A DNA stretch of 64,000 nt from Candidatus Poribacteria bacterium (GTDB lineage Bacteria > Poribacteria > WGA-4E > PCPOR2b): the NCBI GenBank assembly GCA_965208325.1, contig OZ242326.1:2560001-2624000 (forward strand), given 5' to 3'. Under the pieces are notes generated by a model. That model searched no databases and was not told the DNA's origin. It saw nothing but the letters and a program-made list of their open reading frames with translations. Below are positions 27,028 through 31,107 of this stretch, one piece after another (position 1 is the stretch's first letter; every line of letters begins with the position of its first letter). The position numbers and the translations under genes are program-made.

Positions 27028-27480
27028 CTAAACGGTTGCAGGGTCAACAATCACGATGCCTTCGTCGTGGTAACGCTCAAAGTCATTTGTGTTGAAAGTC
27101 AATATATGTGTTACTCTGTTGTAAACCATTGACGCGACTAAACGGGCGTCGAAAGTCTGTATTCCCGATACGTCATATTTCACTACGAGGCGTCGCCATA
27201 TGCGATAGATAGCAGGTGAATCGGTAAGCAAAGGGAAGATTTTCTCTGCTCTTAACAAGAGGTGATCTATTTGGGAAATGTCTAAACCGTAGCCGTTTTT
27301 GACAGTCGATCGGGTTGAAACGGTCCAGAACTCCGCAAAATTCTGCGATGTGGTTTTCAGTACGTCGTTGTTCGCCCACAGTTTATTCACAGCGGATTGG
27401 ACAGTTGTATAATTTGGATCCGTCGTGTGCAAAAGCCGTAAGAGAACATTGGTATCGACCAGATAAATCACGACTATCAA
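27028..27480 (-). CDS. vapC: PIN-domain (VapC-like) toxin (start TTG 27480 or GTG 27471)
   Basis: YLVDTNVL, QNFAEFW, FDARLVASM, ILTFNTNDF. Confidence 0.9.
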   Translation of the reverse strand: MIVVIYLVDTNVLLRLLHTTDPNYTTVQSAVNKLWANNDVLKTTSQNFAEFWTVSTRSTVKNGYGLDISQIDHLLLRAEKIFPLLTDSPAIYRIWRRLVVKYDVSGIQTFDARLVASMVYNRVTHILTFNTNDFERYHDEGIVIVDPATV

Positions 27481-30479
27481 TCGTCCTCGTATATTCCTTC
27501 ACGGCTGACCGCGTGATTTGAGAGGGGTGGGGCATCAGGACCAGCGAATTCCATGAATTTGTCTGCTAGCTGGCCAGCCAATGCTTCTAAATCAAGCCTG
27601 CCTGTTCGGAGGAGATTTTCATGGGCGCGGGCTGCATGCCGACGTACGTTCTCATTGCGGCTTTCAATTCCGGCTTTCAGGATAGTTTCTGCTCCTTCAG
27701 TGTAAATGTCAACGGTGTCACTAGTGAATCCATCAGTTAGCTTTGCAAAGCAGGCGACGACTTTGGCAGTATAATCGGGAAGCATCTCGCACAAAGCGTC
27801 AATTTGAATTGCGACTGACATTTTTTCCGCTTTGCTGACGTCCAGGATCCTGGAGTACGCGTTTAATCGCCAGTGAGCATCTAAACACTTGGCTTTCAGC
27901 CAGAATGTGAACTTGCCGAGTTCCTTGGGTTCTTTACTAGTGAAACGCCAATTAAAAAAGTCTATAATTCTGGCCTTTACAATTGCATTAAGTTCGCCAT
28001 TGGTATCCCGCAAGATTCGACCCACGTGGTCAAACAAATTCTCCCAATGCTCAAGATTGTTGGCAGTAGCCTTGTAATAGTCCTCTAGCAGACTTGTGTC
28101 GCCTGTGAGGGGATACGTCTCCCACAAATAGAAGGTAAATAGTCGTTGGCCAAGTAGATAAATCAGTTGGGTGGCGTTGGATTGCCTCTCATTGAATTTA
28201 GCTAGATTCTGTAGCGCAAATTCAAAATCGCCGCGAAGAACCTTAAAGGTAGGTTTAAACGGTTTATTGCAGCTCAAGAAGCCGTTAAAGGCGGCAAGCC
28301 ATTTGGGGAACTCAGCGCGCGGAAACAAGTCTGATTTGTGTTCAGTCGCCCATGCCTCATTTAGGTAAAAAATTCGATTGTAGTTCTTTCCCAGAATAGC
28401 ATACTCTGGCTGGGTCACGGGCTGTCCCGTTTCCGAAGCAAACCGACTTTCAAGAATCGCCGTTAATTCAGAGACTTCAGATTCTGAATCATGTCTTCGC
28501 ACCCAGAATCCGAATTGAACCAACGCGTCGAGTGCACGGCTTCGCGTGTTATTGATTCCTTCGGTGATTAGGTCGTTTTGGTTCAAAAAGTGCCGCTTGT
28601 CTCGATCCAGCCATGAATCATATTGTGTGCAAAGCATCTTCAGCAGTGTGGAAAGTTGCAGCCGTGCGGAGATGGGAACGTTTACATCGTCTTGCAGGCA
28701 TACTTCGATAAAATCACAGACTGCCCGCCGGGAATTGTACCAGTTAGGGTTGTCTCGGGATTCGTCGCCTTGTTTACCTAGCCTATAGTCTTCCTTGAGA
28801 TCTTGGTCAGGGTGGGAAAGTACCCATTCGCTAAATGATAACCACGCGCTAAGCCTGTCGAAGTGCTTCGATTTTACGTCCGTTTGCATGGCGACAATCA
28901 TCATTCGCACGTAAATGGGTCTCTCAATTTTTTCGCGATTTTCAATCCAGAATTTGCGCCTTTTGAGATTCGGGATAATGTGTTGCGTGAAAAAAGTTTG
29001 AAACGCGACGCTGAGGCCTTCAATGTTGACTTCTATAAAATGATTACCTTTGTAAAGGGGCTTTTCTCCCTCGTACTTGTTTATGTAGGCGAGTAGTTCT
29101 TCATCGGTGAGTTTGGAAAGGTCGTCGGGTGAGCGTGGGCTACGACTAGAAACTGGTCCTCCTCTTGTCTTTATTAGCGGATAGTCGTCATCGGATATCT
29201 CATCCTCAGCCTGAGCCTCAGATTCTAACTGTTGCAAATAGGTTTCATATTCGCCGAATAGCACGGGCGCAAAAGGCTTGAGTTGCTTGCGATGGAAACG
29301 GAGCTGAAGTTGTCTAAACTCGTCCTGGTTAAGGGTATCTTTTGAGGGGCCGCTGCGGATGCAATCGAAAATATGTCTAAGCTCTTCCTTTGTAAGCAAT
29401 GCCGTACCAAACTGTTCACAAGCTCTTCGAATCATTTGTTGAAATTCATAACCGTATTCCAATCGTTGATAATCTTGATAATCTAGAATCATTTGCCGAA
29501 TCCACGGTTTGGTTTGCTCACTTGGATATTTGGCATAGAGGTGCTGGCGCAGGCGTTTGAATATACGCCAGTGCTGGTTGCGCAATGCTTCGTCCAAATC
29601 GAGAATTGAATCGGGTCTTTTTTCGTAAACCCGACGACAAGCGAAGGTGAGTGTATGAACCAGTGATTTATCAGGGGCTTCATAATCATCCTCAGATTCA
29701 TCGAGCCGTACACACCAGTAATCGGAATAGTCGACATCGTTGTCAAAGTCCCCTTGATGCGTTCGCACATCAATCATATTTGCGGCGGCATAGATGAGAA
29801 TGCACGCAACCTTGTAGGGTTCTTCCTCGGCAAGCGGACGAACGCCTTTGGACAATATCTCACCGTATTCCCAACTACCAATTCGAGGGGACGGTTCAAG
29901 TTGCGTCGCCGCTACCCTAGTTGCTATTGCGGCTAAATCTTGCTGATTCTCTCTCCGCCGTTTCCGCTTGTCCCTTTCTTGGGAATCAGGCAAAAACGCA
30001 ACTAGTATTTTTGAAAGTTCCAATGCATCCGATATCTGATTCTCCTTGGTCCAATGGGCTAACAAGTCTGAGTATTGATACGTCCAAACTTGGTGTTCTA
30101 GCTCTAGAGATTCAAGTATTTTCGGCATCAGTTTGGCGGAATGTTCTCCGCGGAGTTCCAATGCAATTTCCAAAATGTCATCATAAACGCTAGGATTGTC
30201 AACTTTAGGGAGTCCCAACACTAAATTAACAACTTGATCGGGCACATCGCACGACACATTTTTGAGGTATTGAAGTTCGGGCCAACGGGGGAATTGAACG
30301 TAGCCATCGTCAAAGTATCTAATTTTTGGGGGTGACTGAAAAATTCCGCGTTTGACGAGCGGTTGAATCCAGAGGGGATTCGACAACCTTGAGAAAAAAT
30401 ACCGGCGCCCGGTTCCTTTTTTGACCAGCCTTAAGGCCTTATCTATCATTTCATTCGTTGGTTTCTTCCAAGATTTCAT
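27477..30479 (-). CDS. Large, probably alpha-helical hypothetical protein with antitoxin-like C-terminal tail
   Basis: 1000-aa ORF, YFFSRLSNPLWIQPL...WPELQYL N-terminus, no Walker A seen; ends PDAPPLSNHAVSREGIYEDD. Confidence 0.8.
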   Translation of the reverse strand: MKSWKKPTNEMIDKALRLVKKGTGRRYFFSRLSNPLWIQPLVKRGIFQSPPKIRYFDDGYVQFPRWPELQYLKNVSCDVPDQVVNLVLGLPKVDNPSVYDDILEIALELRGEHSAKLMPKILESLELEHQVWTYQYSDLLAHWTKENQISDALELSKILVAFLPDSQERDKRKRRRENQQDLAAIATRVAATQLEPSPRIGSWEYGEILSKGVRPLAEEEPYKVACILIYAAANMIDVRTHQGDFDNDVDYSDYWCVRLDESEDDYEAPDKSLVHTLTFACRRVYEKRPDSILDLDEALRNQHWRIFKRLRQHLYAKYPSEQTKPWIRQMILDYQDYQRLEYGYEFQQMIRRACEQFGTALLTKEELRHIFDCIRSGPSKDTLNQDEFRQLQLRFHRKQLKPFAPVLFGEYETYLQQLESEAQAEDEISDDDYPLIKTRGGPVSSRSPRSPDDLSKLTDEELLAYINKYEGEKPLYKGNHFIEVNIEGLSVAFQTFFTQHIIPNLKRRKFWIENREKIERPIYVRMMIVAMQTDVKSKHFDRLSAWLSFSEWVLSHPDQDLKEDYRLGKQGDESRDNPNWYNSRRAVCDFIEVCLQDDVNVPISARLQLSTLLKMLCTQYDSWLDRDKRHFLNQNDLITEGINNTRSRALDALVQFGFWVRRHDSESEVSELTAILESRFASETGQPVTQPEYAILGKNYNRIFYLNEAWATEHKSDLFPRAEFPKWLAAFNGFLSCNKPFKPTFKVLRGDFEFALQNLAKFNERQSNATQLIYLLGQRLFTFYLWETYPLTGDTSLLEDYYKATANNLEHWENLFDHVGRILRDTNGELNAIVKARIIDFFNWRFTSKEPKELGKFTFWLKAKCLDAHWRLNAYSRILDVSKAEKMSVAIQIDALCEMLPDYTAKVVACFAKLTDGFTSDTVDIYTEGAETILKAGIESRNENVRRHAARAHENLLRTGRLDLEALAGQLADKFMEFAGPDAPPLSNHAVSREGIYEDD

Positions 30480-31107
30480 CCATACTCCTTATCCGCTCAA
30501 GTTCGCTGCTAGCAGCGGTGTATAGAAAGTCATCAAGGTTCTGAAAATGTCTAACTACTTCAGAGGATGCAGCCATGTCAAATTCGCCATCACGTAGATG
30601 GGTATGTTCCAAAAACCACCGTCTTGCGCGCTTCCATTCTGTCAGAAGGTTTTGGGGAATCTCATCCGCGTCGGCATAATCCAAAAAGGTTGTGAAGAAT
30701 AGGCTTTCTGCTTTTGAGGCTCGGTGACGTCCATCTCTGTGTTTATTGATTAGAACCTGTATCTTTTCACAAATTTCATAAGGGATTAAATTTCCAATTT
30801 CGGTGTTATCTATATTACTAACAACTTCCACTCCCCATTCGTCTTCCCAATGATTTTGTATTTCACCCACAAGTTGCACATATTGAACCGACTCTGGCTG
30901 GATTCCCAACCGGGGAAGGCTGTTCATCAAATCCCTGCCGGTGTGGGATACGAACGTAATGTAGCCCGGCAGTTTCTTTTCTAGGAGATTTAATGCACCT
31001 TTGTAAGCTTCAGCAAATACCGGTAACTGGAGTTCATCGTTAATCCAGTTAAATACTGTCTGCTGATCTGTCGAAAGCGTAACGCCCTCATTGCTTGTAT
31101 GATTCAA
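30451..31107 (-). CDS. Hypothetical protein, candidate HEPN-like nuclease
   Basis: SHTGRDLMN near the N-terminus and RWFLEH (RxxxxH) followed by TH; overlaps the next gene by 29 nt. Confidence 0.55.
   Translation of the reverse strand: MNHTSNEGVTLSTDQQTVFNWINDELQLPVFAEAYKGALNLLEKKLPGYITFVSHTGRDLMNSLPRLGIQPESVQYVQLVGEIQNHWEDEWGVEVVSNIDNTEIGNLIPYEICEKIQVLINKHRDGRHRASKAESLFFTTFLDYADADEIPQNLLTEWKRARRWFLEHTHLRDGEFDMAASSEVVRHFQNLDDFLYTAASSELERIRSMDEILEETNE

Follow-up and report, generated by a model that had tools for sequence, protein, structure and literature searches.

An Avs7/Dsr1-type sensor gene with a putative VapB-derived tail, split from its predicted effector gene and followed by a PIN toxin gene, in a Poribacteria genome

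A stretch of 64,000 nt from a Candidatus Poribacteria bacterium (assembly GCA_965208325.1, contig OZ242326.1, positions 2,560,001 to 2,624,000; here referred to as the window, i.e., the whole stretch of DNA that was analysed, with positions counted from its first letter) contains three co-oriented, overlapping genes. An initial annotation, made from the letters alone, had proposed them as a new defence operon consisting of a HEPN-like protein, a helical protein of 1000 residues and a PIN toxin. The locus raises the question of what such a large protein does between two putative nucleases, and how the three genes came to stand together. In this study, genes 1 and 2 were found to form a split member of a broader, already described sensor family, one that would work like Dsr1 and lies outside strict Dsr1 or Avs7. 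The most unusual feature of the locus is an antitoxin fused to the C-terminus of the sensor, apparently the antitoxin of the PIN toxin encoded downstream. The relevant features are as follows.

30451..31107, minus strand: gene 1, open reading frame (ORF) of 218 amino acids, putative effector
27477..30479, minus strand: gene 2, ORF of 1000 amino acids, putative sensor with tail
27028..27480, minus strand: gene 3, ORF of 150 amino acids counted from a TTG start, putative PIN toxin
30451..30479, minus strand: dual-coded overlap of genes 1 and 2, 29 nt, conserved
27594..30479, minus strand: gene 2 residues 1-962, probable Avs7/Dsr1-type helical sensor (PADLOC Dsr1 profile, AlphaFold2)
28320..28410, no strand: probable recombination junction within gene 2, at about residues 690-700 (identity switch, trees, metagenome contigs)
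27477..27593, minus strand: gene 2 residues 963-1000, in frame, probable C-terminal half of a VapB-type antitoxin (sequence identity)

What kind of protein does gene 2 encode? Residues 5-765 match positions 302-1026 (of 1227) of the PADLOC Dsr1 profile PDLC04166 over 760 residues (E 6.8e-24), and the matched region comprises everything past the SIR2 domain. The same profile was matched by six of six further sensor homologues that were scanned and by a Streptomyces plasmid protein. The family is large, with 2953 representatives at E values up to 0.001; plasmids yielded three records, all weak matches. As noted in the initial annotation, the protein is helical, rich in Trp (2.2%) and Leu (11%) and lacks a Walker A motif; no NTPase family was matched either, and the AlphaFold2 model is an almost all-helical solenoid with almost no beta-sheet (predicted local distance difference test score, pLDDT, 88.8). 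Searches of Pfam, PADLOC and NCBIfam gave no SIR2 match in gene 1 or gene 2. Structural comparison of gene 2 returned generic HEAT-repeat solenoids only (Z up to 13.5 at a root mean square deviation of 24), and no relative was found by sequence among solved structures. Gene 2 thus appears to encode an Avs7/Dsr1-type helical sensor that carries neither an NTPase nor a SIR2 domain.

According to PMC13581612 and its preprint, this sensor is common to Avs7, Dsr1 and a HEPN-containing Streptomyces protein, the phage major capsid protein activates SeAvs7 and EcDsr1, the bilobed helical sensor of Avs7 envelops the capsid protein, and split proteins were analysed together with their neighbours. By analogy, gene 2 may sense capsid protein as well; the link to Avs7 runs via Dsr1. 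The locus shares with Dsr1 a C-terminal sensor without an NTPase, but differs in that no SIR2 NADase is present, the effector is encoded by a separate gene, the sensor bears an antitoxin tail and a PIN toxin gene follows. With Avs7 it shares the sensor family and neither the STAND NTPase nor the Cap4 nuclease. A HEPN-like protein with an Avs7-type sensor from Streptomyces sp. NBC_00271 (Extended Data Fig. 2 of PMC13581612) likewise combines a small helical putative RNase with the sensor and has no NTPase; it is known there from a model, and no antitoxin fusion was found in the accessible part of that paper. The proposal that the system is not a named one therefore holds for strict Dsr1 and Avs7, which are excluded by the missing SIR2 and NTPase, but not for the sensor, which matches the non-SIR2 part of Dsr1 and belongs to the family described there.

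Where does the end of gene 2 come from? Tail-less sensors stop near residue 965 at a GRFDLL motif, and gene 2 continues for 38 residues more. These residues are 49-69% identical to the C-termini of genes of ~91 amino acids that, in many Poribacteria, lie upstream of PIN genes standing alone. The stand-alone antitoxins match no Pfam or PHROG family, and the nearest named Atlas clusters are VapB-like with a score of only 0.78-0.80, which serves as a lead only. The fused tail is the sole copy of this antitoxin in the genome; nothing there matches the N-terminal ~52 residues of stand-alone antitoxins. In VapBC modules, the N-terminal part of VapB binds DNA and its C-terminus blocks VapC. Judged by sequence, the tail of gene 2 most probably derives from a VapB-type antitoxin, of which it represents the C-terminal half, and the cognate VapC/PIN toxin would be encoded by gene 3. 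At the level of search listings, no paper on an antitoxin fused to an Avs7/Dsr1-type sensor was found.

The initial annotation was right in calling gene 3 an intact PIN nuclease: its Pfam PIN match is above the cut-off (E 3.1e-10) and D9, E50, D111 and D133 are present. It is 55-64% identical to the PIN genes of stand-alone vapBC pairs, with the acidic catalytic positions kept, and scores below the cut-off of the NCBIfam VapC subfamily (42.8 vs 73.6 bits). A GAGGA motif lies 3 nt before TTG 27480 and 12 nt before GTG 27471, and 4 of 10 aligned homologues begin with Met at the position next to TTG 27480. Because of this spacing and these Met starts, GTG 27471 is probably the start codon rather than TTG 27480, and the 4-nt overlap reported between genes 2 and 3 would exist only with the less likely TTG start. 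In a modelled complex of two PIN chains and two tails, the score was 0.88 against 0.52 for the best control, runs agreed on at least 87% of contacts and partner pLDDT was at least 80; of 157 solved complexes, 116 attain the mark applied to this score, as do 2 of 215 mismatched pairs, and both numbers are only approximate here. The modelled contacts are confined to residues 964-999 of gene 2 and include T10, E50, D111 and D133 of the PIN protein, i.e., the tail is predicted to bind gene 3 over the PIN active site. Since VapBC is a textbook pair, the model may pass because it resembles complexes already solved. Thus, as in VapBC, a PIN toxin with its catalytic acids is preceded by an antitoxin C-terminus modelled over the active site; unlike in VapBC, a 962-residue putative phage sensor replaces the antitoxin's N-terminal portion, and there is no small separate antitoxin.

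The distribution of the tail bears on its history. Among the best 120 of 1055 gene-2 homologues, 26 have ~200 extra N-terminal residues; the tail is present in 17 of these 26 long proteins and in 2 of the 94 short ones, with one shared junction. In the tree of C-terminal regions the tail-bearing proteins form one clade (24 of 54 leaves, five tail-less ones among them; support 0.995). A strong match to the sensor C-terminus (E < 1e-60) was found in 58 of 176 genomes of the phylum, seven of which carry the tail; apart from the present genome, these are six members of a single genus belonging to another family. Several states of the locus are on record. One locus (L087) is unfused, with gene 1 and the sensor, a stop codon and then a complete antitoxin and the PIN gene, in this order; in another (L088) a decayed antitoxin lies behind the sensor; and in a third genome (G029) the tail contains two stop codons and the PIN gene is absent. 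With ancestral, fused and decayed states at hand, the locus may illustrate how an ordinary toxin-antitoxin pair is wired into an immune sensor by a single deletion. These contexts rest on GTDB genomes and on metagenome contigs spanning the junction; metagenomes scanned with the last 300 residues of gene 2 returned nothing. The ratio of non-synonymous to synonymous substitution rates (dN/dS) of the tail, which rests on 38 codons only, is 0.03-0.20 in pairwise comparisons where dS is unsaturated, and that of the adjacent sensor region is 0.17-0.28, indicating that the fused tail is probably under purifying selection.

The tail and the toxin gene appear to have reached this strain by recombination. 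Residues 1-650 of gene 2 are 96-100% identical to the tail-less protein P0004, and residues 701-1000 are only 28-68% identical to it and 64-94% identical to tail-bearing proteins; accordingly, the two halves fall in different clades with different sisters (tree support 1.0 and 0.975). The junction is bridged by contigs of three sequencing runs from two studies (X1, X4 and X6): run X1, possibly the source sample, holds a 4145-nt contig without differences across the PIN gene, the tail and the junction, and run X6, from the other study, also covers tail and PIN. In run X5, one contig has a different stretch of 1957 nt where the present strain has 2275 nt comprising the sensor end and the PIN gene. 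Gene 2 is thus a mosaic, and the strain owes its tail and PIN gene to a recombination event within the gene for the sensor. It follows that the C-terminal third of the sensor, the tail and the PIN gene are exchanged together, as a cassette, among alleles of a single locus. The PIN gene is a clade-restricted add-on, and genes 1 and 2 are the conserved unit; the proposal of a single three-gene defence operon was correct in that the genes are real and the first two belong together, and fell short with regard to the PIN gene. Such exchange of the C-terminal third among strains also hints at a way in which the recognition range of the sensor could be reshuffled.

Is the separation of genes 1 and 2 real? 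In the 26 metagenome loci found with gene 1, several of which are near-duplicates, the sensor gene follows in 22, and 19 have an overlap of exactly 29 nt, with sensor identities as low as 43%; the remaining loci comprise three with a broken gene 1 ahead of the sensor, one at a contig edge and three truncated without a sensor. The same overlap also occurs in records of Latescibacterota and Gammaproteobacteria, so that the 29-nt overlap given in the initial annotation is both real and conserved. The ATG of gene 2 lies inside gene 1, 5 nt after an AAGGAG, and is kept in all 29-nt junctions inspected, which favours separate initiation of gene 2 over a programmed frameshift. The split is thus in all likelihood genuine. 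A sequencing frameshift at the split combined with an assembly chimera at the tail junction might be suspected, as fused gene 1-sensor proteins exist and the identity switch against P0004 is abrupt; the recurrence of the 29-nt overlap in independent loci and other phyla, the bridging contigs and the alternative allele in the same place in X5 refute this, leaving it a negligible probability.

What, then, is gene 1? All 27 of its longer homologues are fused to the sensor and none is fused otherwise; because of this, gene 1 is taken as the split-off N-terminal effector domain of the sensor. Consistent with this, three of the 26 N-terminal extensions mentioned above are 45-49% identical to gene 1. 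Its SHTGRDLMN motif, pointed out in the initial annotation, is conserved among close homologues (H55 in 117/120, R58 in 119/120, D59 in 117/120), and H55, R58, N62 and H170 are invariant in an alignment of 65-66 rows, which suits a catalytic site. Profile-profile comparison links gene 1 to a sister N-terminal type (probability 95%, E 3e-8, 202 columns), in which the SHAGRDLMN of the gene 1 type aligns to the AHSLRELxE of a pP_pnuc_1-like type; this sister type, to which the other N-terminal extensions belong, matches Pfam pP_pnuc_1 ('predicted nuclease') weakly. Gene 1 may accordingly be described as a helical putative nuclease effector, HEPN-like by motif and related to pP_pnuc_1, with an RNase activity that we infer. 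HEPN RNases have a conserved N-terminal helix of the RxxxE type. The label 'HEPN-like RNase' is provisional, resting on motif likeness and on the label given to the same architecture in PMC13581612. Among 42 long sensor representatives chosen from 150 listed, 24 have a weak N-terminal pP_pnuc_1 match (three above the cut-off) and nine an N-terminal PIN_12. In these nine, which are more distant members (P0244, P0266, P0270, P0272, P0274, P0277, P0281, P0288 and P0290), PIN_12 stands in place of the SIR2 or HEPN-like domain.

Relatives of gene 1 were absent from viral contigs (0 of 438 candidates) and from plasmids. Frameshifts or stop codons disrupt gene 1 in five Poribacteria genomes (G121, G105, G040, G155 and G082) in which the sensor gene is present; such decay is as expected of a costly toxic effector. 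Genes 1 and 2 would thus represent a testable, split, NTPase-free member of the capsid-sensing family with a putative RNase as effector, and the split raises the question of how the sensor activates its partner in trans.

Beyond the homology, gene arrangement, fusion history, selection and recombination shown above, we infer the following activation steps. Gene 2 would wrap newly made phage major capsid protein and then change shape or oligomerise; activated gene 2 would switch on the translationally coupled gene 1 protein, the putative HEPN-like RNase, and the infected cell would be stopped. One Poribacteria lineage would have grafted a neighbouring vapBC pair onto genes 1 and 2, when a deletion took the stop codon of the sensor along with the antitoxin's N-terminal portion and left the 38 toxin-binding residues as a sensor tail. 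Gene 2 would since have been the only antitoxin for the gene 3 PIN RNase, and loss of the sensor protein through gene loss, phage-driven host shut-off or proteolysis would free the toxin. The result would be an addictive defence gene with a back-up kill switch. Overall, it is considered probable that the locus is a split, NTPase-free system of the Avs7/Dsr1 family with a grafted vapBC, in which the tail silences the PIN toxin and sensor loss frees it. The readings weighed here overlap in part, so that the degrees of confidence attached to them do not add up to a whole.

The initial annotation had envisaged a sensor scaffold controlling one or two RNase effectors. A helical sensor with nuclease-type effectors in defence islands is indeed what was found; the fusion of the PIN antitoxin to the sensor C-terminus had been missed. 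Enrichment in defence islands, which had been proposed as a check, was observed: type III restriction-modification (R-M) genes lie within ~8 kb in 22 of 32 non-redundant homologue loci (38 less 6 duplicates) and, in a scan of this genome by sliding windows with the same queries, in 68 out of 2345, a comparison to be taken as support and not as a statistic, since the genomes are related and 20 regions were chosen by hand. The sensor module often lies between the type III mod and res genes (L080-L099, L005, L098), and some loci have short prokaryotic Argonaute or PARIS-like genes. The genomic context of the sensor loci is in support of a defensive role. In two of these loci (L005 and L098) two sensor genes stand in tandem, one of the fused type and one split or effector-less. 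Beside the sensor locus, L080 (2023-4760) and L088 (522-3388) encode a short prokaryotic Argonaute together with a partner of the HNH- or REase-APAZ type.

Besides the limit on the island count, several observations weigh against the grafted-vapBC interpretation or parts of it. Most of the 58 genomes with a strong sensor match (51) are without the tail. Of the seven tail-bearing genomes, four have an intact PIN gene; among the other three, one has a frameshifted copy, one a short remnant and one no PIN gene, i.e., the gene is dispensable. Two PINs of fused loci resemble the unfused PIN of L087 more than they resemble each other; PIN alleles therefore seem to recombine, and part of the signal of purifying selection may predate or bypass the fusion. 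For the sensor, no Avs7 or Dsr1 chain was among the listed structure matches of gene 2 in a PDB copy ending April 2026, and its similarity to Dsr1 is distant, at the 20-25% level, so that the trigger may differ. For the HEPN identity of gene 1, the model has seven helices at low confidence (pLDDT 51.5), and the fold search gave hairpin matches only (best Z 6.1) and no clear fold. The RxxxxH motif that had been noted (R163-H168) is present here but not conserved (R163 in only 34/120 close homologues, H168 in 5/28 fused ones). The neighbouring R162 is found in 106/120 close and 13/28 fused homologues; the His that does not vary is H170, and no Arg is conserved ahead of it at the distance of 5-7 residues that the Rx4-6H spacing of HEPN proteins would require. 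Profiles of gene 1 and of its sister type also missed the N-terminus of the Streptomyces plasmid sensor fusion (L100); by eye, this N-terminus has SHLFRELE and GYAH motifs in the same order as in gene 1.

These points leave some room for gene 1 being an adaptor or regulator instead of a nuclease, and for a trigger other than capsid protein, the latter in view of the low similarity to Dsr1. No family, fold or canonical motif has been confirmed for gene 1: Pfam, PADLOC, NCBIfam and PHROG gave no family, and no relative was found by sequence among solved structures. A helicase match there at E 0.02 was taken as chance. Against an adaptor, gene 1 occupies the slot that SIR2 or PIN_12 takes in other members, has invariant His, Arg and Asp residues, and has a sister type that matches a predicted nuclease family; such a combination is considered distinctly improbable.

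A different question is whether the toxin matters to the sensor at all. A chance deletion may have fused vapB to the sensor, with the pair persisting only as loss of the tail frees the toxin, and with no role in defence or retention. This would fit a single origin, the presence in 7 of 58 sensor-bearing genomes (six of one genus) and the repeated decay of the PIN gene; stand-alone pairs of the same antitoxin family are, moreover, common in the Poribacteria phylum, so adjacency would arise easily. However, under such neutrality the constraint would end once the PIN gene mutates, yet four genomes at dS ~1 or more keep it intact, the intact PINs of fused loci show dN/dS values (0.12-0.29) like those of stand-alone copies (0.17-0.27), and the module has spread to another family by recombination. 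We regard a merely neutral passenger as somewhat unlikely.

At the other extreme, the sensor itself could be the antitoxin in a functional sense: binding of capsid protein would close the two-lobed sensor and pull the tail off the PIN dimer or expose it to a protease, freeing the tail-held VapC RNase as a second effector besides activating the split HEPN-like one. The tail is joined to the last sensor helix without a linker, the fusion is old (dS 0.3 to saturation) with the tail conserved more tightly than the adjacent sensor, and tail and PIN crossed Poribacteria families along with the C-terminal third of the sensor; PIN-fold domains are, in addition, already N-terminal partners of the sensor (the nine of 42 chosen representatives above). 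Nevertheless, simple addiction would conserve a neutralising tail too, and residues 979-1000 are disordered in the monomer model, leaving no evident mechanical coupling. The PIN gene is broken or lost in 3 of 7 genomes with the sensor kept, and this repeated loss argues that it is not needed for defence. Capsid-triggered release agrees with all observations made here but is considered unlikely. If true, it would show in concrete terms how a toxin-antitoxin module can turn into an effector triggered by phage, and would provide a design from nature for a ligand-gated toxin, caught in the act, with pre-fusion, fusion, decay and intragenic transfer visible in extant genomes; if capsid protein does not free the toxin, the locus would still be a defence gene guarded by built-in addiction. 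In CapRel and toxin-antitoxin-chaperone (TAC) systems, the antitoxin side reportedly senses phage proteins, in the case of CapRel capsid protein. The present locus resembles them as a toxin-antitoxin module tied to phage-protein sensing, and differs in that the proteins are unrelated, the sensing and neutralising parts come from two systems probably joined by a deletion, and gating is only proposed.

Lastly, the three genes have one noteworthy neighbour on each side.

26682..26942, minus strand: 3' fragment of a large terminase gene, presumably of a prophage (paralogue identity)
31475..35425, plus strand: type IIG R-M gene, divergent from genes 1 to 3 (PADLOC, Pfam)

The latter is a fusion of type IIG restriction and modification functions (PADLOC REase_MTase_IIG, E 8.7e-73; Pfam Eco57I and TaqI_C), and the coordinates agree with the three co-oriented overlapping ORFs divergent from it that the initial annotation had described. 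The terminase relic noted there was also recognised: four genes of ~600 codons lie elsewhere in the genome, and its 86 codons share 71-74% identity with the ends of two of them; over ~450 nt (window 26500-26960) the DNA shares 74-77% identity with two such terminase-like genes at their 3' end and in the DNA downstream. Against annotated phage large terminases the fragment gave a weak match (best E 0.01). The four terminase-like genes suggest several prophages. A scan for promoters was uninformative (14 sites vs 8.5 expected), no RNA run was among the listed runs holding the stretch, and at the flanks of the three genes no repeats bordering them as a mobile unit were found. We assume that the host is a sponge symbiont of the Poribacteria, given that sponge metagenomes are among the sequencing runs holding the stretch and that the label Candidatus Poribacteria is attached to close relatives.

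At window 26121-26475, a repeated element of 120-250 nt and a repeat of ~55 nt have dozens of copies genome-wide, often in tandem runs with a spacing of ~290-350 nt, and gave deep pile-ups in the search of sequencing runs; a partial 54-nt copy lies at 35597-35650. Further away, an ORF of 1877 amino acids at window 11625-17258 encodes what we take, by eye, to resemble a doubled UvrA-type ABC ATPase, and the genes at window 37727-38254 and 38989-39615 encode two small paralogues that have a hydrophobic segment at the N-terminus and repeats rich in Gly, without a Pfam match.

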